Positions 15,272 through 28,998 of a stretch of DNA of 38,190 bases are shown here, piece after piece. The notes below the pieces were generated by a model. That model was not told the DNA's origin. It saw nothing but the letters and a program-made list of their open reading frames with translations, and made no database searches. The number at the start of each line of letters is the position of its first letter. Position 1 is the stretch's first letter. The translations under genes and the position numbers were made by a program. The stretch is from an uncultured Actinomycetota bacterium (GTDB lineage: Bacteria; Actinomycetota; Geothermincolia; Geothermincolales; RBG-13-55-18), in contig CAYPZH010000002.1 in assembly GCA_964415205.1 (NCBI GenBank), positions 10,507-48,696 of the forward strand. Direction: 5' to 3'.

Positions 15272-15866
<595 letters not shown>

Positions 15867-15917: not shown

Positions 15918-18900
15918 CTAGCCGTGTTCGAGACGTGCCAATGCTTCTCGAGTGCGGGTGAGCCAGTAGGAGTCGGGGATAACTGCCATCTCGAGCAAGA
16001 GTTCTTCTGCCTTGTGAAGGCTCTCAAGGGCTTCTTCCTTTTGGCCGGCCAGCTCGAAGACCTCGCCGAGGAAAAGAAAGCCCAAAGCCGAGATCGGCTT
16101 CGACAACATCTCCTCGGCCATGGAGATCCCGCGCCGGATTTGCTCCGATGCTTCTCGCAACCGAGAGGGCGCTTCTTCTCCCCCCGCCCTCCCCAGGGCT
16201 ACTAAAGCCATCGCCTCAAAGAACACCGCCCCGTGCTCACGCGCCAGCCTCAAGGCCTCTTCCGCATGCGCCCTTGCTCTGCCGGGTTCCCCTGCTCCGA
16301 GGTCAACCAGGGACAATGCCCATGAAGAAAACGGCAATATGATTGGTACACCGCTTTCTTCATTTACCTCGCTGCCCTTCTCGATATCCTTTCTGGCGGT
16401 TTCGTAATCGCCGAGGAAGAAACGGCCCAGCCCCAACCAAAGCATCGCGGTGCCCAGGAGGAACTTCACCCCCGAATCCTCGTAGCGTTCGATGGCCCTG
16501 CTCGCGTGATGGACCAGGCCATCCGCGTCCCCTTCGGGGAACGCAACGAGGCAGTATGTTTGGTCGATGTATCCGGCTCCGAAGACCTCACCGATCTCAA
16601 GGGTATGCTCGAGCCCTTTCTCCAGCACCGCCTTTGCCTCCTCGAATTCCCCCATCATCCCCAGGGCCTGGCCGCACCATGCGCACTGATCGCTGTATAC
16701 GGTCCATGGCCCCACTTTGAGCTCTTTTTCCAGGTGCTTCTCCTCCAGCACCTCGATGACCCTGCGGGCGATCATGGCGACCTCAAGGAAATCTCCCGAG
16801 AAGAACAGGGAGCTGCAAATGTCGAAAGCGGCCAGGGACATAAATCTGATGTCCCCGGCCTTCTCGGCGGTGTCGAAGCATTTCCATGAGTATTCCACAC
16901 CCAGCGATACGTCTCCCCTCAGGGTGTGGAAGAGGGAGAACCTGCTGTAAACGGCGACCAGGCTGCCCTTGTCCCCGAGTTCCTCGGCGAGCCTTTCCGC
17001 CTCCTCGAGGAAACCGATGCTGCCCTCGGGAAAGCCCAGGAAGAAGGCGGGGTCCAGGATGGAGATGAGGATATCCAGCCTGGCTCGCTTGGTATCCTTG
17101 CTCTGCGGCTGGGAGTCGAGTATGCGTATGGCCTCCTCGTAGAGGCGGATGGCCTCCCAGTTGGCGTAATCGTGCGTCGCCTTGTCCCCGGAGAGCCTGA
17201 GATAGCGTATGGCCTTCTCCGTGTTCTCGCTCCTGGAATAGTGGTGGGCTAGGGCCTCGTAGAAGTCCTCCAGGCGGTCGGCGTAGAGCCCCTCTATCGC
17301 CAGGCCTGTCCTCTCGTGCAGCTCCCTCCTTCTCTTGAGCGGGAGGCTCTCGTAGGCCACCTCCTGGGTAAGGGCATGCTTGAAGATGTATTCCGGCTCG
17401 GGGAATAGGCTCTTCTCGTAGATGAACTCCTGGGACTGCAGGGCGTGGAGGGTGGACTTTAAGACCTTACCCAGGCCGGTGACCTCCTCCAGCAGGCGCA
17501 GGGAGAACTCCCTCCCGATGACCGCGGCGAGCTGCAGGACCTCCTTCTCTTCCTCGGGCAGGCGGTCCAGGCGGGAGGCGATGATGCCCTGCACGCTGTC
17601 CGGCACCCTGATCCGCGAGGGCTCGGCGGAGAAGGCGTAGCGCCCGCCCTCCTTCGCGATGGAGCCCGACTCCAGAAGGGAGCGGGTGAGCTCCTCGATG
17701 AAGAGGGGATTGCCGGCGGCCTTCTCGGTGATGAAGTCCGAGATCTCGCGGGATACCTCGCCCTCCGCGAGGATCCCTTCCACCAGCATGGTACTCATGC
17801 CCTCAAGGAGGCTCTCCACCCTTACCTGGCTGTAGAGGGTCCTGCTGGTCCAGGCAGGGGTGTAATCGGGGCGGTAAAGAAGTAGGAGGAGAATGGAGGC
17901 TGTGGGCATGCTCTCCATGAGATAGGAGAGGAAGTCCTCGCTCGTCTTGTCCATCCAGTGCAGGTCCTCCACCGAGACTATCAGGGGCCTCTTGCGGGAT
18001 TCGGCTACGAGCAGGTGGCGGATGGCATCGAAGGCCCTCTCCCTTCGTTGGGCGGGCTCCAGGGCGAGGTAGGATTCGTCGTCCACGGGAAGGGAGAGCA
18101 AATCCTCGAGGGGCGGGAGGATGTGGGAGAGCTGGCCGTCCAGGGGGGCCAGCCCTTCCTCCAGCTTGCGTTTGCTCGCCTCCTCGTCCTCTCCCTCTGC
18201 GATATCGAAGTAGGACCGCAGGATGTCCAGGATGGGGAGGTAGGCGATGGCCTCCCCGTAATGGACGCAGCCCCCTTCCAGGTAGGTGTATTCGCCTTCG
18301 GGGAGGGCCTTCCTGAACTCGAGCAGCAGGCGGGACTTGCCCATGCCGGGCTCACCCACCACCCCCACCACCTGGCCGGAGCCCTCTCTTACCCTCTCGT
18401 ATGCGTGGGCGAGGTGCTCCAGCTCCCTCTCCCGGCCCACGAAGGGGGAAAGGCCGCGGGCGAGGGAGGCGGATATCCTGGTCCTGGCCGGACCCGGCGA
18501 GATGAGGTTCCAGGCCGGCCGCTTTCTTCCCTCCACCTCCACCTCACTGACTTGAGCGAACTCGAAGTATCCCTCCGCCGGGCGGAGGGTGGTCTCGGAC
18601 ACGAGGACCTCTCCCGGTCCGGCGGCGCTTTTCATCTGCGAGGCCAGGTTCACCGTATCCCCCAGGGGGGTGTAGGACATGGAGAGGTCATCCCCTACGC
18701 CCTCCACCTTGATTAGGCCGGTGTTAGCCCCCGCGCGCAGGGTGAGCTCCATCCCCTTTGGCTTGAGTCTCTTTTCGTATTCGGAAAGGCGCCTCACTAT
18801 CGCCAGCGCCGCATAGAGTGCTCTCTGGGGGTCGTCCTCGTGGGCCAGGGGGGCTCCGAAGATGGCGGTGAGGCCGCCGCCTGCGAGCTGGGCTATGGTG

Positions 18901-19550
18901 CCCTCGTATCTGTGGACCTCCTCGGCCATGATGTCTACGGCCGGGCGCAGGAGGTCGTGCACCTCCTCGGGGTCGAGCTTCTCAGAGAGAGCGGGAGGAA
19001 GCGATGCGCCGGCACAGAGCACCGTCACCTGCTTGCGCTCTCCCTCCAGGGAGGGGCGGTGGGAGAGTACCCGCTCAGAAACATCCCCTGGCGCTGAGGG
19101 AACAGTGGTGGTAGTGGAGTACTCCCTTTCCCCGGGCTGGATGCCCAGGGCTCGGAGGCCCTCGATGATACTGGGTATAGTGGGGGAGAGGTCCCCTTCC
19201 TCCGAGCAGAGCATGGCCGTCCCCCCCAGGGCGTGTCGCCACTCCGGCTGGCATTCCTTGAGCTCGTCGGGGGTCACCCCCACCAACACGGGCACGAAGG
19301 GTATCCCCCTCTCGAAGGCCCCCACCACCTCCTTTGTCACCTGGTCGGATGCGAGGGCGGCGGGGGTGGCCAGCAGCACCAGGGCGTCGCAGGCCTCCAT
19401 GGCCCGGGTGATCTGGATAAGGTAGGAGGTGCCGGGAAGTACGTCCCGCTCGAAGAACCAGGCGGCATATCCCGCCTCCTCCAGCCCTTGTGCCAACTCC
19501 CGCATCAGGGGCTCGTCCTCGATGACGTGGCTTACGAAGATGTTTCCCAT
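15918..19550 (-). CDS. Giant TIR / degenerate class III cyclase-homology / P-loop STAND (AAA_16) / TPR protein
   Basis: 1210-aa ORF. Residues 1-~135 are TIR_2-like (IFVSHV, WFFERD, SDQVTKE with Glu74 at the catalytic-Glu position). Residues ~170-350 form a cyclase-homology domain (ERKQVTVL, IFGAPLAHEDDPQRA, GDTVNLA). Residues ~365-620 form the NTPase (Walker A GEPGMGKS, Walker B-like LIVSVEDLHWMD). Residues ~760-1210 are TPR-like helical repeats. Confidence 0.85.
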   Translation of the reverse strand: MGNIFVSHVIEDEPLMRELAQGLEEAGYAAWFFERDVLPGTSYLIQITRAMEACDALVLLATPAALASDQVTKEVVGAFERGIPFVPVLVGVTPDELKECQPEWRHALGGTAMLCSEEGDLSPTIPSIIEGLRALGIQPGEREYSTTTTVPSAPGDVSERVLSHRPSLEGERKQVTVLCAGASLPPALSEKLDPEEVHDLLRPAVDIMAEEVHRYEGTIAQLAGGGLTAIFGAPLAHEDDPQRALYAALAIVRRLSEYEKRLKPKGMELTLRAGANTGLIKVEGVGDDLSMSYTPLGDTVNLASQMKSAAGPGEVLVSETTLRPAEGYFEFAQVSEVEVEGRKRPAWNLISPGPARTRISASLARGLSPFVGRERELEHLAHAYERVREGSGQVVGVVGEPGMGKSRLLLEFRKALPEGEYTYLEGGCVHYGEAIAYLPILDILRSYFDIAEGEDEEASKRKLEEGLAPLDGQLSHILPPLEDLLSLPVDDESYLALEPAQRRERAFDAIRHLLVAESRKRPLIVSVEDLHWMDKTSEDFLSYLMESMPTASILLLLLYRPDYTPAWTSRTLYSQVRVESLLEGMSTMLVEGILAEGEVSREISDFITEKAAGNPLFIEELTRSLLESGSIAKEGGRYAFSAEPSRIRVPDSVQGIIASRLDRLPEEEKEVLQLAAVIGREFSLRLLEEVTGLGKVLKSTLHALQSQEFIYEKSLFPEPEYIFKHALTQEVAYESLPLKRRRELHERTGLAIEGLYADRLEDFYEALAHHYSRSENTEKAIRYLRLSGDKATHDYANWEAIRLYEEAIRILDSQPQSKDTKRARLDILISILDPAFFLGFPEGSIGFLEEAERLAEELGDKGSLVAVYSRFSLFHTLRGDVSLGVEYSWKCFDTAEKAGDIRFMSLAAFDICSSLFFSGDFLEVAMIARRVIEVLEEKHLEKELKVGPWTVYSDQCAWCGQALGMMGEFEEAKAVLEKGLEHTLEIGEVFGAGYIDQTYCLVAFPEGDADGLVHHASRAIERYEDSGVKFLLGTAMLWLGLGRFFLGDYETARKDIEKGSEVNEESGVPIILPFSSWALSLVDLGAGEPGRARAHAEEALRLAREHGAVFFEAMALVALGRAGGEEAPSRLREASEQIRRGISMAEEMLSKPISALGFLFLGEVFELAGQKEEALESLHKAEELLLEMAVIPDSYWLTRTREALARLEHG

Positions 19551-19594
19551 GTGTGCGTCACCTTGCTCGCTCCGGCGGCGCAGGTCTTCTTAGT

Positions 19595-19726
19595 GATGGT
19601 CAAGGAAGCAAGGGAAAGGCCTTGTCCGCAGCACCACTTGTAGCAGGAACCCTTTTGCCCCTAAAACCTAGCACCACCAACATGATAGCACTTAAAGAAC
19701 GGGGCATAGAATCGTAAGGGTTTGTC
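19595..19726 (-). promoter_or_regulatory. Conserved upstream leader/promoter segment of TIR paralog 1 (copy A)
   Basis: About 130 nt align with 24201-24332, including a 37-nt identical core (19657-19693 matches 24264-24300). In gene sense the core contains TGCTATCAT (complement of 19682-19690), an extended -10-like element. Confidence 0.5.
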
Positions 19727-19831
19727 ATTCACAGACAGTAGACTGACGGGTGGGGTTGATGGTCGTTCTGGGCTAGAATAGTAGAAAGGCAACAGATAGA
19801 GGATTTCATCTACACGGAACATGCGCTCGAT

Positions 19832-20044
19832 ATGCTTGAGGAGCGCAAGATCAAAGAGGAATGGGTCAGGTCGGCTTTGCGGGATCCCGAAAGGAAGGAG
19901 AAGAAGGAGGATGGAACGGTCGATTATCTGAGGTCTATCGAGGAATTCGATAATCATTATCTGCGAGTCGCGGTAAACCCGGACGCGCAGCCGCCTAGGA
20001 TCGTTACCGTCTTCTTTGACCGGCGACTTGGGAGGAAGACATGA
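19832..20044 (+). CDS. DUF4258-family protein (putative toxin), possibly N-terminally truncated
   Basis: 70 aa from ATG 19832. The family-like sequence RDFIYTEHALD continues in frame upstream as far as TAG 19796-19798 with no ATG/GTG/TTG. It overlaps the next gene by 4 nt (ATGA). Confidence 0.6.
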   Translation: MLEERKIKEEWVRSALRDPERKEKKEDGTVDYLRSIEEFDNHYLRVAVNPDAQPPRIVTVFFDRRLGRKT

Positions 20045-20241
20045 GGTTGAGAATCGACCAGCAGAACGATGCGTTATATTTCCGCCTCGATGAATCGGAG
20101 ATCGTTGAATCGGAAGAGGTCCAGCCCGGGGTGATCCTGGACTATGACGCCAAGGGCAACGTCATCGGCATCGAGATGCTCGATCTTAGCAAGAGGGTAT
20201 CGAGCGAAAACCTCAAGAACCTGCAGTTTGAGACCCCCTAG
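20041..20241 (+). CDS. DUF2283-family protein (putative antitoxin partner of DUF4258)
   Basis: 66 aa. MRLRIDQQNDALYFRL...GVILDYDAKGNVIGIEMLDLSKR is the typical DUF2283 pattern. Confidence 0.7.
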   Translation: MRLRIDQQNDALYFRLDESEIVESEEVQPGVILDYDAKGNVIGIEMLDLSKRVSSENLKNLQFETP

Positions 20242-20516
20242 GTGCTGCATGCTGCTTAAGCCCCTTGCTGGCGCAGATCAATCCGGAAACGGGCACATTT
20301 TTAACACGGTGAGAAATGCGGTGGTTTCTGAACGCCTCCACAAGCAACAACCTCTAGCTCGCAAAAGCTCAGCGCAAGGGAAGTATTAGACGATAGGAAC
20401 GGGTGCAGCCCCTCCAGGTACTCGTATGACATCATGCCTTTCGAGGCATGTGAGTTTCTATCGGGCGGGCTATTTGTGGTAATCGCGCATCACGATATGG
20501 GATCACAAAGGTAGAC

Positions 20517-23500
20517 CTATCCCTGGCCGAGCCGCGCCAATGCTTCCCGGGTGCGGGCGAGCCAGTAGATCCGGCCCGTCTCTTCGCATATCTTCTCGGC
20601 TCTACGCAGGCACTCCAGGGCCTCCTCTTTCCGCCCCGCCTTCTCGCATACCTCCCCCGCAAATAGATCCCCCAGTGATTTCATCCCACTCGCTCCCATC
20701 TCTTCATAAAGGGACATACCCTGGCGTATGTGCTGCAGGGCGGCATCGACGTGCGATGGATCTGCCTCACACTCTACCCTTCCTAGATACAGCAGGGAGA
20801 AAGCCTCCAACATCTTTGACCGATAATTCCTCGAAAGCGTAAGTGCTTCTTCGGCGTTCCTCAAGGCGTTCCCGGGATCTCCCGCAGCCAGCTGGAAAAG
20901 GGCCAACTGAGACTCGAGCTGAGGCGTGACGATGGGTGCGCCGACCTCCCGGTTTAGCTCCACTCCCTTCTTCGCGTATTCAACCGCTTCCCCGTACTCG
21001 CCCAGCATGTAATGCCCCCACCCCAGACAGGTCAAGGGGAATCCCATGTAGAAACCAAGCCCCGTCTCCTCGAAACACTGCAAGGATCTGCGTGCGTGCT
21101 CGATCACCGCATCGGGATCTCCCTTGAAAGATAACAACAGGCTGTAGAAGTACTCTATCCAGCCGGTCCCAAAGGTGTCCCCGACCTCGAGGGTGTGCTC
21201 GAGACCCCTCTTGAGCACGCTCTCCGCCTCATCGAATTCTCCCAACCACGTTAGAATCATCCCGCGCCATCCGCATTGATGGCTGTACACCATCAATCCG
21301 CCCACCCTGATATCATCCTCCCTGCGATGTTCCTCGATGAGTCTTATGATCCTGTCCGAGATAATGCCCACGTCCTCAAGGCGTCCCACATAATGCATGG
21401 GGACGCAGATATCGAAGCCGGTCTCGGCCATGGTGTCGACGTCCCCCGCCTTCTCGGCCGCATCGAAGCACTTTGCACAGTACTCGATTCCAAGGGATGT
21501 GTTACCTCGAAGGGTTTGATATCGGGCCAGAATGCCGTAGATCTTGGCGAGAGCCCTCTCGTCGCCGAGTTCCTCGGAGAGTCCCTCCGCATTCTCGAGG
21601 ACCTCCATGCTTCCCTCGGGGTAATTCAAGAGGTAGAGCGAGTATATCATCGACAGGTAGACATCCATCTTCGCTTTCTTGTTCTCCTCGCTCTCGGGCT
21701 GTTCATCCAGCAAGCGTATTGCCTCCCTGTAATAGTTTATTGCCTCCCGGTTGGAGTAACTGCGCGCGGCCTTGTCCCCGGAGAGTCTGAGGTAGCCGAT
21801 GGCTTTCTCTGTGTCGTCACTTCTCGAGTAATGGTAGGCCAGCATCTCGTGGAACTCCTCCAGGCGGTCCGCGTAGATACCCTCGATGGCCCGTCCTATC
21901 CTGGCGTGTATCTCCCTCCTGCGCTTGATAAGCAGGCTCAGATAGGCCACCTCCTGGGTGAGGGCGTGCTTGAAGATATACTCAAGCTCCGGGAAGATGC
22001 TCTTCTGATAGATGAACTCCAGCTCCTGCAGGCTCGAGAGACTGGACTCGAGCTCCTCCTCGAGGCCGGTGATGGCCTGGAGCAGGCGAAAGGCGAACTC
22101 CCTCCCTATCACCGCGGCTACCTGCACGAGCCCCTTGAGGCTCTCCTCCAGGCGGTCCAGGCGGGAGGCGATGATGCCCTGGATGGTGTCCCGGCACCTC
22201 GATGTCGGTGGGCCTGCCCGAGAGCACGTAGCCGTCGTCATCCTTGACGATGGAGCCATTCTCCAGAAGGCCGTGGGTGAGCTCCTCGATGAACAGGGGG
22301 TTTCCGGCGGCCCTGCCCACGACGAGGTCGCATATCTCCTCCGCCACCTCACCCCCGGCCAGGATGGACTGGACCAGGTCGGCACCTTTCTCTTCAGGCA
22401 GCTGGTCCACGCGGACCTGGCTGAAGAAGGTCCTGGCAAACCAGGCCGGAGTGTAATCGGGGCGGTAGAGGAGCACGAGCAGGATGCTAGCGGTGGGCAG
22501 GGAATCGATGAGATAGGCGAGGAACTCCTCCGAGGTCCTGTCTATCCAGTGCAGGTCCTCCACCGTGATAACAAGGGGCTTTAACTGGCTCTCCGCGACG
22601 AGCAGGCGGCGGATGGCCTCGAAGACCTTGAGCCTCCTCTGCTGGGGCTCCAGCTTCAGGTACTCCTGGTCCTCCACCTCGAGGGAGAGGACCTCATGGA
22701 GCGGGGGTAGGATATCATCCAGTTGCCCGTCGAAGCGGGCCGTCCTCTCACCTATCCTCTTCTTGATGACGCCCTGGTCCTCCCCCTCGCCTATGCCGAA
22801 GTAGTCTCTCAAGATCTCAAGCACGGGCAGATAGGGGATGTCCTCGCCGTAGTGATAACACCCGCCCTCCAGGCAGGTGTAGTCGCCTTGCGGGAGGGAG
22901 CGGGTGAACTCCACGGCCAGCCTGGACTTACCCACCCCCGGCTCTCCGATCACCCCCACCACCTGGCCCCGTCCTTCCCGGACCTGCCCCAGGTAGTAGG
23001 CGAGGTGCTCCAGTTCCCTCTCCCTGCCCACGAAGCGGGTGAGGCCCCTGGCCAGGGAGGCCTCCACCCTGGTAGCGGCATGCCTGGATGAGAGGACCCG
23101 GTATGCCCTGAGCGGTGCCTCCTCTCCCCGCACCTCGATCTCGCCCAGGTCCTCGAAGTCGAAGTAGCCCTCGGCGAGATGGTAGACGGCTTCGCTGACG
23201 CAGATGTCGCCCGGCTCCGCGGCGTCCTTCATCCCCGCGGCCAGGTCCACGGTGTCCCCCACGGCCGTGTACTCCATGGCCAGGTCGTCCCCTATCCTCC
23301 CCACGATGACCAGGCCGGTGTTTAAGCCCATGCGCAGGCTGCATCTGAGCCCCCTGGCCTCGAGCCCCTCGGCATGATCGCCGAAACGCCGCCGCATATC
23401 CAGTGCTGCATGCAGGGCGCGCCGGGGATCGTCCTCGTGGGCGATGGGCGCCCCGAAGATGGCCATGATGCCGTGCCCCGTGAACTGGGCTACGGTGCCC

Positions 23501-24156
23501 TCGTAGCGGTGGATCTCCCCGCTCATGAGCTCCAGGCAGGGCGCGAGGAGATCGTGGAGCTCCTCGGGATCCAGCTTGCCGGAGCCGAGCCCGGTGATCT
23601 CCACGCAGAGCACCGTTACCTGCCTGCGCTCCCCCTCCACAGTGGAGCGTGCGGCGAGTATCCTCTCGGTCAACTCTCTGGGGGCACGGTATGCAGGACT
23701 GGATATGGCGGGGGTGAGGGCTTCCGCTTTTCCCTCCTCCGGCTGTATGCCCATGGCCTGGAGCCCATCTATTACACGTGACACGGCCTGGGGTAAGCCC
23801 TCGGATCCCACGGTGAACATGGCCGTCCCCCCCAGGGCGTGCCTCCATTCCGGCTGGCGCTCCTTGAGCTCCGGGGGGGTGACGTCGACCAGGACGGGGA
23901 AGAAGGGGATCCTCCTCTCGAAGGCCCCCACCACCTCCTTGGTCACCTGGTCGGATGCGAGGGCGGCGGGAGTCACCAGCAACACCAGGGCGTCGCAGCA
24001 CTCGATGGCCCGGGTGATCTGGATGAGGTAGGAGGTCCCGGGAAGGACGTCCCGCTCGAAAAACCAGGCGGTGTATCCGGCGGCCTCCAGCCCACGGACT
24101 ATCTCCCGCATGAGGGGCTCGTCCGCGATGACGTGGCTTACGAAGATGTTTCCCAT
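20517..24156 (-). pseudogene. Second TIR / degenerate cyclase-homology / STAND / TPR paralog, split by a 1-nt frameshift
   Basis: ORF 21982..24162 (TIR, CHD, NTPase; true start ATG 24156, MGNIF...) and ORF 20517..22439 (rest of the NTPase plus TPR) are collinear with paralog 1. The reading frames switch at ...IEVP/DTIQGIIASRL, where this copy has gtcccggcac (CCC at 22190-22192) against gtccggcac in paralog 1. Confidence 0.8.
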
Positions 24157-24200
24157 ATGCACCCCTGCTTGATCTCTCCGTTGATGCTGGCTCTTTCAGA

Positions 24201-24332
24201 GATGGTCAAGGAAGCAAGGGAAAGGCCTTGTCGGCAACAGTCCACATCTTGCAGGAACCCTTTGCCCCTAAAACCTAGCACCACCAACATGATAGCACTT
24301 GATAGACGGGCATAGGACCGGTCGTGTTTGTC
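24201..24332 (-). promoter_or_regulatory. Conserved upstream leader/promoter segment of TIR paralog 2 (copy B)
   Basis: Aligns with 19595-19726 and has the same TGCTATCAT element (complement of 24289-24297). Confidence 0.5.
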
Positions 24333-24392
24333 GTACCCGGACACTGGAATAGCGGACAGAGTTGGCGGAAGTCGGCAGGAGGCTTCGTCAAG

Positions 24393-24430
24393 TTGCGCCC
24401 TATGTAAGATATTCTTATAATCTTACATAG
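24393..24430 (+). promoter_or_regulatory. Sigma70-like promoter with overlapping operator palindrome for the AbrB/RelE operon
   Basis: TTGCGC (24393-24398), a 17-nt spacer, then TATAAT (24416-24421). A perfect 11-bp inverted repeat ctatgtaagat (24400-24410) / atcttacatag (24420-24430) brackets the -10 box. AGGAGG follows at 24431-24436. Confidence 0.6.
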
Positions 24431-24444
24431 AGGAGGTGATGAAG

Positions 24445-24675
24445 ATGGCCCGCCAGATAGAGCTCACCAGGATGTCCAGCAAGGGGCAGGTGGTAATCCC
24501 CAAGAGGATCAGAACCCAGTTGGGCTTCGAGGAAGGAGACCGCATGACGGTAGAGGCAAGGGACGGTGAGATCGTCCTGCGCAAGCTGTCCCTGGAGGAT
24601 ATCGTGAGGGAGGCTGAACAAGACTGGCGCAGCAAGAAGTCCGTGCGCCTCTACCCGAAGGGCTCCGGGAAATAG
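24445..24675 (+). CDS. AbrB/MazE/SpoVT-family antitoxin
   Basis: MARQIELTRMSSKGQVVIPKRIRTQLGFEEGDRMTV... is a SpoVT-AbrB swapped-hairpin motif. I prefer ATG 24445 (8 nt after AGGAGG) to the GTG at 24436 in the track. Confidence 0.75.
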   Translation: MARQIELTRMSSKGQVVIPKRIRTQLGFEEGDRMTVEARDGEIVLRKLSLEDIVREAEQDWRSKKSVRLYPKGSGK

Positions 24676-24678
24676 CCT

Positions 24679-24963
24679 ATGTGGGAGGTGCACGGCTCCC
24701 GGTGCGTGGCCAAAGCGCTGGAGCGGTACGGCAGCGTTCTGACGGGTTGTTACGATAGGGCCTTTGCCAAGCTCTCGCAGCGTCCTCGCTCGGGAAAGCC
24801 GCTCAAAGGTTACGAAGGGCTTTTCAGCCTGCCTGTCACAACCCCCGGAGGGGAGCACCGCATTATATACCAACTCAAGCCGGAGCATAAGGTCGTCTAC
24901 GTGGTGCTCACCGGTCCGCGAGAGGAGATCTACGAGATATTGAAGAGAAGCGGCTTGAAATAA
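24679..24963 (+). CDS. RelE/ParE-family type II toxin
   Basis: 94 aa beginning 3 nt after the antitoxin stop. ...KLSQRPRSGKPLKGYEGLFSL...HRIIYQL..EHKVVYVVLTGPREEIY fits the RelE/ParE fold pattern. Confidence 0.75.
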   Translation: MWEVHGSRCVAKALERYGSVLTGCYDRAFAKLSQRPRSGKPLKGYEGLFSLPVTTPGGEHRIIYQLKPEHKVVYVVLTGPREEIYEILKRSGLK

Positions 24964-24977
24964 TCAGTATCTTTCCA

Positions 24978-25160
24978 AACGACCAACTCAAAAACAGGCA
25001 CGATCTGGAAACAGCCGTGTAGTCCGTATTTACAAGGTCCATTGCAAACAGGCAGTCTGTTCTGCAAAATGCCAGCTCAAGATACCTGTTTACATAGGGT
25101 TCTTTTTCCTTGCTTGCGACGTATATTGCAGAGCACAGCGCCTTTCGAGACATGAGCGCC
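24978..25160 (+). repeat. Island repeat family, full copy 1 (~185 bp, non-coding)
   Basis: Aligns along its whole length with 27319-27505, for example ggcacgat.tgga.acag.cgtgtagt.cgtattt.caaggtcca, gttctgcaaaatgccagctcaagatacct and cagcgcctttcgag. It starts 15 nt after the RelE stop. Confidence 0.65.
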
Positions 25161-25322
25161 TAAGTTCTCAATCCAATTCGCGGCTTGTTTAAGTTCCATT
25201 ATTATTCCAAGTCGCTTCGCTTAAGTTCCTTACGCAAGGGGTAGAGAGATAGGCAAGGGCTGGGTTCGACGCAACTGCGACACTTCCACATTATCACACC
25301 GGTATCGACAGGGAGGACCGAG

Positions 25323-26559
25323 ATGGAAATCACGCGTGTTTTCGTAGTGGGCGCGGGCTTTATGGGCAGCGGCATAGCCCTGGCAGCGGCATCCTCCGGT
25401 TACCAGGTCATGATGTTTGACTTGAGCGGGGAACGCCTGGACGCAGGGGTGGCGAACATAAGGAGATCGCTTCAAAAGCTCCTGGACAGAAAAAAATTAC
25501 CCGGGAAGAACATGATGCCACTCTGGGCGGCCTTAAACAGCGACGGATATTGGACAGGCCGGTGACGCGGAGCTCGTGATCGAGGCGGTGACGGAAAAAG
25601 TCGAGTTGAAGAGAGATGTGTTCAGCCGTTTGGATGGGATCTGCCCCTCACATACCATTTTAGGAACCAATACCTCGGCCCTCCCCATAACCTCCATAGC
25701 AGCCGCTACTGCCCGACCGGACAGGGTAGTGGGCATGCATTTCTTCTTCCCCGTACCCCGCGTGCGGCTATGCGAGATAATGGCCGGCCTGCTCACTTCC
25801 CATGAAACCATGCTGATTGCATCTGCATGGGTTGACTCGCTGGGCAAAGATACAATAATGATCTGGAAGGACCACGCTGGCTTTATCGCCAACCGCATCA
25901 ATCTTCTCATCTCGATCGAAGCGGTTCGCCTTGTGGATGAGGGAATCGCGACAATAGAGGAGATCGACCTGGCGACGGGAGGAAGCGACTCCCAGATGGG
26001 TATTATCCAGCATATGGATTATGCCGGACTGGATACAGCTTTCAACTCTTTTTCAGCCCTCTACGAGGATACCAGGGAGGCCAGGTTCTTCCCGCCTCCA
26101 CTGCTGCGCCGCATGGTGGCTGTAGGCCTGCTGGGTCGCAAGGCAGGAAGGGGGTTCTACGATTATACCAGCGGTAAGCGTGCGAGTTTTGTGAAGTTGA
26201 GTGGCGATGAAATAGCAGCGCAGAGCGATGAAGAACGACAGCAAAGGTACGCCTGGTTGAACCAGAGGATCTTCATGCCCTCTATTCTAGAGGCGGTGCG
26301 CGTCTTGGAAGCAGAGGTTGCATGCGCAGAGGACATAGATAAGGCTGCTCGCCTGGGCATGAATCTTCCCCTTGGGCAGTTGGAGATGGCTGATAACATA
26401 GGCCTGGATGTTGTGACCGAAACCGCGATGGCCTTCTATAAAAACTCAGGGGAAGCAGGATTCTTCCCGCCTCCCCCGCTGCGCCGCATGGTGGCTGCAG
26501 GCCTGCTGGGTCGCAAGACCAAAAAGGGTTTCTACGAATACCCTCCAGATAACGTTTGA
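25323..26559 (+). pseudogene. 3-hydroxyacyl-CoA (3-hydroxybutyryl-CoA) dehydrogenase, disrupted by two 1-nt frameshifts
   Basis: ORF 25323..25565 carries the Rossmann VVGAGFMGSGIA and ORF 25576..26559 carries the remainder (NTSALPIT, GMHFFFPVP, GFIANRI). The expected bridge ...RKKITREEHDATLGGLKTATDIGQAGDAELVIEAV is readable only by shifting frame at the A7 run (25490-25496) and again at aaa (25535-25537). The C-terminal 3HCDH_C-like segment is duplicated (FFPPPLLRRMVAVGLLGRKAGRGFYDY and FFPPPPLRRMVAAGLLGRKTKKGFYEY). Confidence 0.75.
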
Positions 26560-26590
26560 TATTTCCCTTGTTCATAGGTCATCTGCCATA

Positions 26591-26619
26591 TTGAAGGTGT
26601 CATTGCCTGCTATGATAAT
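26591..26619 (+). promoter_or_regulatory. Sigma70-like promoter for the HepT/MNT pair
   Basis: TTGAAG (26591-26596), an exact 17-nt spacer, then GATAAT (26614-26619). AAGGAG at 26631-26636 lies 8 nt before ATG 26645. Confidence 0.45.
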
Positions 26620-26644
26620 AAGAGCAGTAGAAGGAGCATGGAAG

Positions 26645-26999
26645 ATGGCTGAAAAGAGACTGATACTTGATTATCTGCAGGATATTCTGGACGCCATGGC
26701 AAAGGCTCGAGTTTTCCTGAGTGATATGAATAAGCAGCAAATACGAGGCAGATGATCGAACATCATATGCCGTCATCAGAGCACTGGAGGTGGCCGGGGA
26801 AGCTGCGCGCCATATCCCCGAAGAAATAACCCAGAGATATTCCAAGGTCCCCTGGGGCGATATGATCGGGATGAGAGACGTGTTGATCCATGATTATATC
26901 GAGGTGGATCTGGAAGCGGTATGGTTGACCGTCAAGGACGATCTCCCGAAGGCCGAAGAGGAGATCAGGCGGATCATCAAGGAGTTGGGCGATGACTGA
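26645..26999 (+). pseudogene. hepT: HepT (DUF86, HEPN-domain) toxin, frameshifted
   Basis: ATG 26645 opens MAEKRLILDYLQDILDAMAKARVFLSDMNKQQ..., which stops at 26753-26755. The family sequence continues in the frame of ORF 26790..26999 from ~26739 (KYEADDRTSYAVIRALEVAGEAARHIPEE...), with the HEPN Rx4HxY motif in MRDVLIHDY. The shift maps to caaata (A run 26739-26741). Confidence 0.7.
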
Positions 27000-27285
27000 T
27001 CTGGAAAGGTTTAAGCAAACGCTGAACGAGCATAAGACGGAACTAGAAAAGGAGTACTCGGTAAGCAATATCGGCTTGTTCGGTTCCTACGTGCGCGATG
27101 ATCAGGACGCGGGAAGCGACCTGGACATACTGGTGGAGTTCTCGCAGCCCATAAGCCTGCTGAGGTTCGTGAACCTGAAGCGCAGGCTGAGCGATATCCT
27201 AGATGTTGAAGTTGACCTGGTCATGAAAAAAGCGCTGAAGCCGAGAATCGGCGAACGTATCCTCTCCGAAGTCGTTTATATCTAG
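26992..27285 (+). CDS. mntA: MNT-type nucleotidyltransferase antitoxin (MntA-like)
   Basis: 97 aa with the minimal NTase motif GLFGSYVRDDQDAGSDLDILVEF. It overlaps the end of hepT by 8 nt (ATGACTGA). Confidence 0.8.
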   Translation: MTDLERFKQTLNEHKTELEKEYSVSNIGLFGSYVRDDQDAGSDLDILVEFSQPISLLRFVNLKRRLSDILDVEVDLVMKKALKPRIGERILSEVVYI

Positions 27286-27318
27286 AAGGATCTGCAGATA
27301 ATTCATTAGCTTCACGAC

Positions 27319-27505
27319 AACAACCAACTGCCCAGAAATGGGCACGATTTGGACACAGTCGTGTAGTTCGTATTTCCAAGGTCCACAGCAAACATGGCAG
27401 TCAGTTCTGCAAAATGCCAGCTCAAGATACCTATTTATAGAGGGCTTATTCTCCATGTTCGCTACGTATCTTGCCAAGAACAGCGCCTTTCGAGGCGGAT
27501 GGGCC
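27319..27505 (+). repeat. Island repeat family, full copy 2
   Basis: Collinear with 24978-25160. It starts 33 nt after the MNT stop and ends about 84 nt from the 3' end of the convergent radical SAM gene. Confidence 0.65.
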
Positions 27506-27588
27506 TCTTAAGCGATTGTTCTACGGTTTGAAGAGCGAGCAAGGAAAATCAAGCGCAACCATGAGGCGACTTCGCGTTGTTTTCGTGC

Positions 27589-28998
27589 TCAGGCCTGGCT
27601 CTCGCTCCTGGCCTTGACCGCGCGCTGGATCCCGAACCACTTCCTGCCGTTCCCGTTGCCGGCGTAGTCTCCCACCTCGTGGGAGCGGCCGTTGGAGATG
27701 GAATGGCGGTAGAGGAGGTTGAAGGCGAACCAGTAGCTCCAGTGGCGGTGATAATACATGCGCCGGGCGATGGAGCGGTAGGAATAGAAATCCCTCTGCG
27801 CCTTGCGGGTCCTGTCGGTGAGCCAATGCGCGCTGAAGTTCTTCGGCGTGTAGACCACCCGGGCATCCCACTCGGGCTCGAACCAGAACTCCGGCTCCAC
27901 CCTGCCCTGTTCCATCAGCTCGCGGTAGAGGCGCGTCCCGGGATAGGGGACGAGGTGGCAGAGCTGGGCCACCTGGACCTTGTTGCGCATGGCGAAATCG
28001 AGGGTAGCGGTGAAGGAGGTCTCGTCGTCGCAATCGAACCCGAACACGAAAGCCCCCATGACGTGGATGCCGTACTTGCGCAGCAGCCGCAGGGCCTCGT
28101 CGTATTCCTCCACCTTGTTCTGCCCCTTGCCCATCTCTTCCAGGGCCTTTTTAGACATGGTCTCCAGGCCGATGAAGAGGAAGTAGCAGCCGCTCTCTGC
28201 CGCCAGGGCCACCAGTTCCTCGTCGCGGGCAAAGGTGATGGATGCCTGCGAACCCCAGTTTATCTTCATGGGGATGAGCCCCCTGAACAGTTCCTTTGCG
28301 CGCTTGGGGTTTGCCGCTATGTTGTCGTCCACGAAGGGGACCACCTTGCGTCTCTGCAGATTGGTGCGGGGAAGGGACTCCACCTCCGCCAGGACATCGT
28401 CCACCTCGCGCATGCGCACGCGCCGGCCGTTGAAGGCGGTGACCGAGCAGAAGTTGCAGTTGTGGGGGCAGCCGCGCGACGTCTGCACCCCGTTGCCGCT
28501 CCAGTACCTGCGGGGGTCGATGATGTCCCTACGGGGCTGGAGGGGCCGCGCGAAGTCGATGAACTCCTCCTGGCGGTAAAGGGGTCTGAGGCCGTCCGCC
28601 GCGAAGTCCTCCAGGACCTGCGGCCAGATGCTCTCTCCCTCCCCCACCACCACCGCGTCCGCGTGGCGCGAGGCCTCCTCGGGCATCATGGACGCGTGTA
28701 TTCCTCCCAGCACCACCTTGGCTCCCAGGGCACGGTAACGGCCCGCGATCTTGTAGGCCCGCGGGGCGGTGGCGGTCATGGTGGTGATGCCCACCAGATC
28801 GGGTACTTCAGAGAAATCGATGCGCTCGACGTTCTCGTCGATCAGGCGCACCTCGACCTCGGGCGGCGTGTGGGCCGCCAGGTACATCAGTCCCAGGGGG
28901 GCGAGCAGCCCACGGTTGAAGAGATACGTCTCGCCATGCTTGGTGGGGGCGACAAGGTTCAGTTTCAAATGTCTTTCTCTCTTTCTCATCCTTTTCAA
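27589..28998 (-). CDS. B12-binding-domain radical SAM protein (class B, DUF4070-type C-terminus)
   Basis: N-terminal cobalamin-binding-like segment (LVGITTMTATAPRAYKIAGRYRALGAKVVLGGIHAS) and the radical SAM triad CPHNCNFC. The start is uncertain: ATG 28998, or TTG 28968 (MKLNLVAP...). Confidence 0.8.
   Translation of the reverse strand: MKRMRKRERHLKLNLVAPTKHGETYLFNRGLLAPLGLMYLAAHTPPEVEVRLIDENVERIDFSEVPDLVGITTMTATAPRAYKIAGRYRALGAKVVLGGIHASMMPEEASRHADAVVVGEGESIWPQVLEDFAADGLRPLYRQEEFIDFARPLQPRRDIIDPRRYWSGNGVQTSRGCPHNCNFCSVTAFNGRRVRMREVDDVLAEVESLPRTNLQRRKVVPFVDDNIAANPKRAKELFRGLIPMKINWGSQASITFARDEELVALAAESGCYFLFIGLETMSKKALEEMGKGQNKVEEYDEALRLLRKYGIHVMGAFVFGFDCDDETSFTATLDFAMRNKVQVAQLCHLVPYPGTRLYRELMEQGRVEPEFWFEPEWDARVVYTPKNFSAHWLTDRTRKAQRDFYSYRSIARRMYYHRHWSYWFAFNLLYRHSISNGRSHEVGDYAGNGNGRKWFGIQRAVKARSESQA

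Follow-up and report, generated by a model that had tools for sequence, protein, structure and literature searches.

Why would a protein keep a nucleotide cyclase domain that appears unable to act as a cyclase? The question is raised by two tandem paralogs, here called W1 and W2, in a 38,190-nucleotide (nt) stretch of DNA (the window) from contig CAYPZH010000002.1 of an uncultured Actinomycetota bacterium. W1 is an open reading frame (ORF) of 1210 amino acids (aa) whose frame is intact by ORF calling and translation (15918..19550, minus strand), and its Pfam matches give, in order, a TIR domain, a class III cyclase-homology domain (CHD), an AAA_16 STAND ATPase and TPR repeats. The CHD, delimited by Pfam, by PDB-sequence and family alignments and by a fold model, spans residues 170-350 (18501..19043, minus strand) and is catalytically degenerate. 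W2 has a W1-like architecture by translation and Pfam, and is split into two ORFs (20517..24156, minus strand). An earlier sequence-only reading of this DNA had proposed that the CHDs of both paralogs have lost every canonical catalytic residue and are retained for a non-catalytic role rather than for signaling by cyclic nucleotide monophosphates (cNMPs). On balance, we consider it probable that W1 is an NLR-like, single-chain STAND sensor for conflict or defense, in which the TIR domain is the live output and the pseudo-cyclase has been kept as a connector.

By profile score, both CHDs belong to the class III cyclases. The Guanylate_cyc model (PF00211) matches W1 residues 173-344 with E = 1.4e-13 and 51.3 bits against a gathering cut-off of 21.9, and W2, with 55.0 bits, also passes (residues 181-348 in the numbering of the ORF as translated, E = 1e-14). 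When the W1 CHD was compared with PDB sequences by phmmer, the best matches were Cya2 (2w01, E = 6.6e-19), a Cya2-derived chimera and CyaB (3r5g, E = 1.3e-17), and the Cya2 and CyaB alignments were gap-free within the motifs. At the first metal Asp, 'TILTSD' of Cya2 and 'TVFFSD' of CyaB stand opposite 'TVLCAG' of W1, which places Gly181 (nt 19008-19010) in the metal column; at the second, 'FMGDG' and 'FVGDC' stand opposite 'LAGGG', giving Gly225 (nt 18876-18878). In the transition-state motif, 'VNLASRLES' lies opposite 'VNLASQMKS', so that Asn301 (nt 18648-18650) is kept and the Arg is replaced by Gln305 (nt 18636-18638). W1 also retains residues typical of the family at the two substrate positions, Gln221 at the substrate-Lys position (nt 18888-18890) and Thr294 at the second (nt 18669-18671).

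A MAFFT family alignment of 124 rows (W1, W2, 119 other homologs and two solved cyclases) agreed with the phmmer alignment on the catalytic columns. In the W2 CHD (residues 175-355, 23092..23634, minus strand, from Pfam and the family alignment), these columns hold Glu186, His228, Asp304 and Gly308, with Gln224 and Thr297 at the substrate positions. The residue assignments of the sequence-only reading, as well as its coordinates for the W2 domain, were therefore correct in both paralogs; its statement that every canonical catalytic residue is gone applies to W2 and is slightly too strong for W1, where Asn301 survives. That reading had named an alignment to characterized cyclases as a check, and the Cya2 and CyaB alignments place no Asp at the metal positions. 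We also considered whether re-alignment could restore an Asp to the W1 metal positions and rejected this, as phmmer, the 124-row alignment and the fold search concur and no Asp lies nearby. The changes extend beyond the single residues: the beta1-alpha1 phosphate/metal loop, 'FADVxGFTSLSE' in the family, reads 'CAGASLPPALSE' in W1, with two prolines, and 'CVEITGLG--SG' in W2; the loops of W2 and of the W1 ortholog P0002 (79% identity) contain indels; and the family 'RMES' has become 'QMKS' in W1 and 'GMKD' in W2.

Both paralogs thus lack the metal Asp pair, and of the transition-state Asn and Arg, W1 has only the Asn and W2 has neither. Judged by these columns, the W1 CHD is very probably unable to cyclize nucleotides. 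Both proteins are pseudo-cyclases by every sequence criterion, and together with the fold evidence this makes cNMP synthesis by either paralog very unlikely, in agreement with the earlier view that the domain does not serve cNMP signaling. Glu and His, as found in W2, can in principle act as metal ligands, and one could imagine nucleotide turnover or some other chemistry carried out by noncanonical residues such as the Glu/His site of W2. Some tolerance at the active site is indeed evident in a wider control set of about 150 CHDs (those of 148 cluster representatives at 50% identity), where the Asn position is Gly in 17 (DDGR) and His in 13 (DDHR) with D/D/R otherwise kept; single-CHD STAND proteins in the set keep both Asp residues and the Arg almost always. 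We regard Asn as an unreliable marker of inactivity in the CHD–STAND family. Gly at both W1 metal positions, the missing Arg in both paralogs and the remodeled substrate loop nevertheless make residual or altered catalysis very improbable.

The fold appears to have outlasted the active site. An AlphaFold2 model of W1 residues 1-365 had a mean pLDDT of 81.5, and a Foldseek search with this model matched CyaB (3r5g), Cya2 (2w01) and CyaC (1wc*) with E values of 1e-12 to 1e-14 and target TM-scores of 0.71-0.80. As modeled, the W1 CHD is a cyclase fold without cyclase residues. The earlier proposal that the fold is retained is supported by the confident model, by target TM-scores reaching about 0.8 and by the selection on the domain described below (CHD dN/dS 0.49).

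Is such a domain typical of the proteins that share this architecture? We searched full-length W1 against a collection of 5.8 billion proteins and obtained 3769 matches at E <= 1e-20; the family counts given here are those of the best 119 of these matches, W1 itself excluded. The relatives come from uncultured Actinobacteria, Desulfobacterota-like bins, Dehalococcoidia and similar sources, and the TIR-bearing family is seen mainly in metagenomes. A TIR domain is present in 78 of the 119 and absent from 41; the TIR-less relatives have the same CHD–AAA_16–TPR make-up, preceded by a zinc ribbon or by nothing. The catalytic columns hold Asp in 103, Asp in 103, Asn in 104 and Arg in 96 of the homologs, and the family consensus is canonical ('VTVLFADV.GFT … GTIAQFLGDG.MALFGAP … GDTVNLASRMES'). 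Scoring these columns for conservation, another check that the sequence-only reading had put forward, therefore indicates that the losses in W1 and W2 are not due to chance, and the scaffold motifs FGAP, AHEDxP and GDTV, which it had called well conserved, are near-invariant in the family alignment. From its residues, the family is predicted to be normally an active cyclase.

The exceptions are confined to one part of the family. Among full-length proteins, with W1 and W2 counted in, all 43 TIR-less members have the D/D/N/R set intact, none having lost one residue or more, while the 76 TIR-bearing members comprise 50 intact proteins, five with one residue lost and 21 with two or more lost. TIR presence and CHD degeneration are associated (Fisher p = 3e-5, with tips counted without phylogenetic correction), and within the best 119 of the 3769 matches CHD degeneration always occurs in TIR-bearing proteins. 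The pseudo-cyclase is accordingly a minority state limited to TIR-fused members and not a property of the architecture. A scan of species-representative genomes returned only TIR-less CHD–STAND loci, matching the query from residues ~93-170 through 365, so that the TIR-bearing family received no taxonomic placement from it, and a search of representatives clustered at 50%, in which the TIR–CHD family collapses to about three representatives, gave no further TIR-bearing lineages.

We built a neighbor-joining tree from the ATPase and TPR columns alone, so that it is independent of both the CHD and the TIR domain. Degenerate proteins occupied about 10 separate places on this tree, and Fitch parsimony gave 10 state changes (9-11 across 40 bootstraps). 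W1 clustered with P0002 and P0015, and W2 with P0014. The two paralogs fell into one all-degenerate clade in only two of 40 replicates; because intact proteins separated their groups in the other 38, W1 and W2 most likely lost catalysis independently. Since the loss is repeated and found only where a TIR domain is fused, it suggests that the TIR domain makes the cyclase output dispensable.

The replacements themselves vary by lineage, with Gly, Ser, Glu or Gln at the first metal site and Gly, His, Glu, Tyr, Asn or Ala at the second. Written as the residues at Me1/Sub1/Me2/Sub2/Asn/Arg, W1 reads GQGTNQ and P0002 SQDTNQ, W2 reads EQHTDG and P0014 EHHSNE, and other degenerate relatives read DQYTTA (P0022 and P0030), ESETTD (P0037), GQNTDA (P0070) and DENKDE (P0082). 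P0176 (1347 aa) has the order BTAD (SARP-type activator), degenerate CHD (GQSTNA), AAA_16 and TPR, and is a second case in which another N-terminal output domain, here BTAD, occurs together with a dead CHD.

Selection on the domain was examined through the paralogs and through the family. Between W1 and W2, compared codon by codon after deletion of an extra G from W2 (for this purpose only), the ratio of nonsynonymous to synonymous substitution rates (dN/dS) was 0.22 for the TIR domain, 0.49 for the CHD, 0.33 for the ATPase, 0.44 for the middle region and 0.27 for the TPR region, all rough estimates. At the non-catalytic CHD columns, identity to the consensus of intact members was 0.64 in degenerate and 0.78 in intact proteins, and CHD conservation relative to the ATPase and middle regions was 0.96 in the degenerate members versus 1.07 in the intact ones (Mann-Whitney p = 2e-4). 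Selection on the dead CHD has been relaxed but not lifted, and the domain is conserved about as much as the ATPase.

W2 itself requires separate treatment. Its start ATG is at 24156 and its stop at 20517, and its two ORFs (21982..24162 and 20517..22439, the former beginning, as translated, two codons upstream of the MGNIF Met) result from one extra G in a GGG run at 22190-22192 (minus strand, 'GTGCCGGGACACC'), a +1 frameshift at which the frame switches between '…DIEVP' and 'DTIQGIIASRLDRL…'. Dropping one G yields 1212 aa without a stop, colinear with W1. Because the site is spanned gap-free in two sequencing runs that come from separate studies, the contig of one carrying a C>A single-nucleotide polymorphism at 22169, the frameshift is a real allele and not an assembly slip in a single sample. 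W2 is probably a pseudogene or becoming one, and its inactivation is probably recent, since dN/dS stays under 1 throughout the gene. The earlier suggestion that the domain is retained for a non-catalytic role thus stands as far as the kept fold is concerned and may fail for W2.

The frameshift also bears on another explanation of these domains, namely that the CHD is functionless in both paralogs, has been decaying since the TIR domain took over and persists because little time has passed or because its neighbors need it for folding. A relic of this kind would fit the CHD dN/dS of 0.49, the highest of the folded domains, the greater distance of degenerate CHDs from the family consensus (0.64 versus 0.78), the frameshifted state of W2 and the indels in the catalytic loop. 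We nonetheless think it unlikely: that same dN/dS is still well below 1, the core has no disruptive indels and its fold is predicted confidently, the FGAP, AHEDxP and GDTV scaffold motifs hardly vary, and an eight-member degenerate clade (P0018-P0039), only 50-54% identical to W1, has a full-length CHD in every member.

A retained fold could alternatively serve catalysis in partnership. Class III cyclases are known to act as head-to-tail dimers, and the CHDs of W1 and W2, which are adjacent and have partly complementary losses, might pair like mammalian C1 and C2, with the W2 metal ligands (Glu186/His228) and the W1 Asn and base-recognition residues making up one crippled or regulatory site. 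There is a parallel in single-chain relatives with two CHDs (P0221, P0127, P0122, P0226 and P0243), which show complementary degeneracy and so are a STAND-linked counterpart, in bacteria, of the mammalian C1/C2 pseudo-heterodimer; in P0221 the pattern is clean, CHD1 (SKGTNR) being without a metal Asp and CHD2 (DQDTEK) without the Asn and Arg. For W1 and W2, by contrast, such pairing has hardly any credibility. Neither protein can supply the transition-state Arg (Gln305 and Gly308), two independent metagenome assemblies agree on the W2 frameshift, P0002 is a single-copy gene on its 35-kb contig, and the two paralogs sit in separate degenerate clades, both of which include single-gene relatives.

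The dead site might instead still bind ATP, GTP or a cyclic nucleotide and gate the ATPase or the TIR domain, much as the degenerate sites of heterodimeric cyclases act as regulatory pockets. Base-recognition residues are kept in W1 (Gln221/Thr294), in W2 (Gln224/Thr297) and in most degenerate relatives, Asn301 is kept in W1, and inactive cNMP cyclase domains elsewhere have been suggested to merely bind nucleotide (Kaur et al. 2020, PMC7159879). Against this, Thr294 lies within the structurally conserved YT..GD motif, and its retention says little; both metal ligands are gone; and the lineage-specific replacement patterns are unlike what selection for a new common ligand would produce. Among the non-catalytic roles that the sequence-only reading had named, nucleotide sensing appears less likely because the phosphate/metal loop has been rebuilt with indels and prolines, and we judge an allosteric sensor of this type to be quite improbable.

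The CHD of W1 sits between a TIR domain and an ATPase whose own motifs are intact. The TIR domain (residues 4-94, 19269..19541, minus strand; TIR_2, E = 4.3e-15) contains Glu74 (nt 19329-19331, minus strand), the putative catalytic residue, in the motif QVTKEVVGA. In alignments with the solved TIR proteins 7uxr, 3h16 and 6wt6, it falls on the Glu of the conserved TIR helix motif, which we take to be the catalytic Glu of TIR NADases, and it is invariant across all TIR-bearing homologs in the family alignment. By profile and by this residue, W1 has the features expected of a TIR effector. The W2 TIR domain (residues 4-103, 23848..24147, minus strand; TIR_2, E = 1.1e-16) keeps the motif at nt 23923-23949. 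Overall, W1 and W2 share 58% aa identity, with the TIR domain best conserved (87%) and the TPR region least (46%).

A further conserved segment follows the Pfam TIR match in W1 (residues 95-135, ~19146-19268, minus strand). It reads 'TPPELKE.QPEWRHALGG', with Q101 and W104 invariant and R105, L108 and G109 nearly so, and was modeled as helices with a pLDDT of 83-91; it probably represents a C-terminal addition to the TIR domain that is specific to this family. In P0133 (438 aa), a TIR region that matches W1 residues 1-172 at 59% identity, with the conserved 'QPEWRHALGG'-type extension present, is fused to an alpha/beta hydrolase in place of the CHD–STAND part. The TIR module thus moves between architectures.

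Downstream of the CHD, the AAA_16 STAND NTPase module (residues 369-555, 17886..18446, minus strand; E = 3.6e-30) has a Walker A motif, GEPGMGKS (399-406), and an acidic Walker B-like motif, VEDLHW (528-532), and the same motifs are intact in W2. C-terminal TPR/MalT-like repeats (TPR_2, TPR_12 and TPR_MalT matches) occupy approximately residues 800-1210 (15921..17153, minus strand), the last TPR/TPR_MalT match reaching residue 1202. We presume that this region is the sensor; that it is the most divergent part of the two paralogs agrees with expectation for a sensor.

In the mechanism that we propose, a trigger would be sensed by the variable C-terminal TPR region, upon which the AAA_16 NTPase, with its Walker motifs intact, would switch and oligomerize as expected from its family. 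Oligomerization would bring the N-terminal domains together, and the TIR domain, with its putative catalytic Glu in place, would provide the output, presumably by cleaving NAD+. The CHD in this account descends from an active class III cyclase, the state still intact in most relatives. W1 and, separately, W2 lost both metal Asp residues together with the transition-state Arg, and W2 lost the Asn as well, while purifying selection, weakened but still real, has preserved the dead CHD as a folded domain. Because the ancestral CHD obligately dimerizes head-to-tail, the domain would most likely now be a dimerizing connector that places TIR domains on the activated oligomer.

Several points weigh against this account of W1 as a TIR-output sensor with a pseudo-cyclase connector. 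The CHD dN/dS of 0.49 exceeds that of all other structured domains between W1 and W2, and dS is near saturation, which is why these estimates are rough. The association of TIR fusion with degeneration comes from tip counts uncorrected for phylogeny, and the neighbor-joining tree is coarse, with TIR-less forms scattered among TIR forms. The NADase activity, the oligomerization, the trigger and any defense phenotype are all inferred. PADLOC gave no system-level match, the 'defense island' context is thin in a neighborhood otherwise devoted to ordinary anaerobic acyl-CoA metabolism, and a non-exhaustive literature search found no study of any TIR-CHD-AAA_16-TPR member.

As to that neighborhood, W1 and W2 are surrounded and separated by three toxin-antitoxin pairs: a DUF433 / DUF5615-PIN_10 pair directly downstream of W1 (15272-15854, minus strand), a DUF4258 / DUF2283 pair between the two genes (19832-20241, plus strand) and a MazE / ParE-like pair upstream of W2 (24436-24963, plus strand). 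A DUF433/DUF5615 pair also lies directly downstream of the ortholog P0002 (L001, 13698-14280) in an otherwise different neighborhood, and the pair appears to travel with the W1-type gene. The intact relative P0008 adjoins a HEPN/nucleotidyltransferase (HEPN/MNT) pair. Paralog arrays seem to be typical of the W1 family, as on the contig of P0013 (L004, 1379-9623), where P0013 itself (TIR–CHD–AAA_16–TPR) heads an array with the TIR-less paralog P0017 (CHD–AAA_16–TPR) and a gene for a 286-aa protein that consists of a CHD alone, the catalytic residues being intact in P0013 and P0017. The rest of the window encodes anaerobic acyl-CoA metabolism (AMP-binding ligases, CoA transferases, acyl-CoA and 3-hydroxyacyl-CoA dehydrogenases), along with a prismane/CODH-family protein and a B12 radical-SAM enzyme. 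This gene context fits a mobile conflict or defense module without proving one.

The G+C content is 0.54-0.56 at 20001-22000 and 24001-28000 of the window and 0.60-0.69 elsewhere. The low-G+C stretches, where an inserted segment may have its edge, correspond to the 3' half of W2 and to the MazE/ParE pair together with the genes after it.

The paralogs also share an upstream block (~19551-19730 and ~24157-24336, minus strand) that continues into the 300 nt coding for the TIR domain. In the interval of approximately -180 to +300, counted from the ATG, identity in 60-nt windows is 0.68-0.93 compared with approximately 67% nt identity over the rest of W1 and W2, and a core of approximately 110 nt (-155 to -45) is ~96% identical between the two; dS is 0.37 in the TIR region versus 0.55-1.65 elsewhere. 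The block is partly conserved ahead of P0002. A regulatory RNA was considered and rejected, as the fold energy was no better than that of shuffled sequences (z = 0.09) and Rfam gave no match at E <= 1. More likely, the block is a tract of gene conversion or DNA with promoter or operator function.

A dead cyclase domain would by itself be unremarkable, since pseudo-enzymes are common. Three features are absent from the sequence-only reading: the TIR domain as the probable live effector, the recurrent loss in TIR-fused members and the W2 frameshift. About 10 independent cyclase knock-outs among the best 119 of 3769 matches amount to a natural experiment, and losses found only with TIR point to functional redundancy between the two effector domains that a single sensor carries, and P0004 or P0008 can be set against W1 as intact and dead counterparts. 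A literature search, again not exhaustive, found no description of TIR-linked cyclase loss. The TIR–CHD–AAA_16–TPR arrangement is a candidate for a new single-gene, NLR-like defense family, apparently unstudied and not in PADLOC. Annotations such as 'class 3 adenylate cyclase' and 'adenylate/guanylate cyclase domain-containing protein' overstate function in approximately one quarter of the TIR-bearing members. A more speculative idea, which we hold as a doubtful but worthwhile possibility, is that intact members are dual-output immune sensors that deliver cNMP and a TIR/NAD+-derived output from one oligomer, that cyclase loss in TIR lineages trims a redundant arm, and that the cyclase dimer has been co-opted as an obligatory TIR-nucleating platform. 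If this were true, it would be a new scaffold for TIR activation, unlike the logic of Avs, Thoeris or Pycsar.

How, then, does W1 compare with known systems? The closest in core architecture are Rv0386, Rv1358 and Rv2488c of Mycobacterium tuberculosis, in which the CHD, AAA_16 ATPase and TPR stand in the same order, and the Gln at the substrate-Lys position of W1 is reported for Rv0386 too. Hundreds of TIR-less relatives with the CHD–AAA_16–TPR core keep D/D/N/R. Rv0386 is active as a cyclase, and the catalytic residues are missing from W1 and W2; proteins of the Rv0386 type have no TIR domain and end in a LuxR-type helix-turn-helix (HTH), whereas W1 and W2 have the TIR domain and no HTH, there being no HTH or GerE family among their Pfam matches. 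The NTPase part of W1 is squarely of the STAND AAA_16/MalT type, with the AAA_16 profile, Walker A and acidic Walker B motifs and TPR/MalT repeats all present. The best NCBIfam match was TIGR03903, a TOMM system kinase/cyclase fusion (W1 residues 169-1146, profile positions 282-1249). We rejected that identity, as the score of 364.3 bits is below the cut-off of 705.75 and there is no kinase domain; the TOMM fusion has an N-terminal kinase where W1 has the TIR domain.

Among defense systems, W1 shares the plan of TIR effector, STAND module and repeat sensor with Avs/AVAST and other bacterial NLR-like STAND proteins with TIR effectors (and, by analogy, with plant TIR-NB-LRR proteins), and has these parts in one polypeptide; a location beside toxin-antitoxin genes is a further resemblance. 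It differs in having an NTPase of AAA_16/MalT type and an extra CHD between effector and NTPase, and no Avs model was among the PADLOC matches at E <= 0.01. Assignment to a known defense system was rejected because PADLOC gave only partial domain matches for W1 and W2: PycC, a weak ThsB-like match and a weak SAVED-TIR match. The best were PycC models on part of the CHD (E = 3.4e-10, 137/374 profile positions). In Pycsar (PycC with a TIR or transmembrane effector), a class III-type cyclase and a TIR domain co-occur as in W1, but there the cyclase signals through a diffusible cNMP to an effector in a second protein, which has a cNMP receptor domain, whereas W1 is a single chain with a dead cyclase. 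W1 does not have a competent PycC-type cyclase, its catalytic residues being lost, and neither the two paralogs nor the scanned neighboring ORFs gave a match to a cNMP-binding domain. Related cGMP-TIR systems have been named 'Pucsar', as outlined in a preprint (bioRxiv 10.64898/2026.08.12.744502).

Degenerate CHDs that serve other ends have precedents. In mammalian adenylyl cyclase C1/C2 and in soluble guanylyl cyclase, a degenerate CHD keeps the fold and serves structure or regulation. In these pseudo-heterodimers the partner supplies the missing residues and one site is active, whereas no partner of W1 provides the Arg. In vWA–MoxR conflict systems, inactive cNMP cyclase domains occur within multidomain proteins (Kaur, Burroughs, Iyer and Aravind, eLife 2020, PMC7159879); where that paper treats these domains, its authors suggest that they bind nucleotide or act as dominant-negative regulators, and the same portions describe no link between loss of catalysis and TIR fusion. 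The host architecture differs as well, with a vWA component there and TIR-STAND-TPR in W1. We conclude that W1 contains a pseudo-enzyme domain inside an uncharacterized TIR-STAND sensor, a new combination of parts that are each of a known kind.

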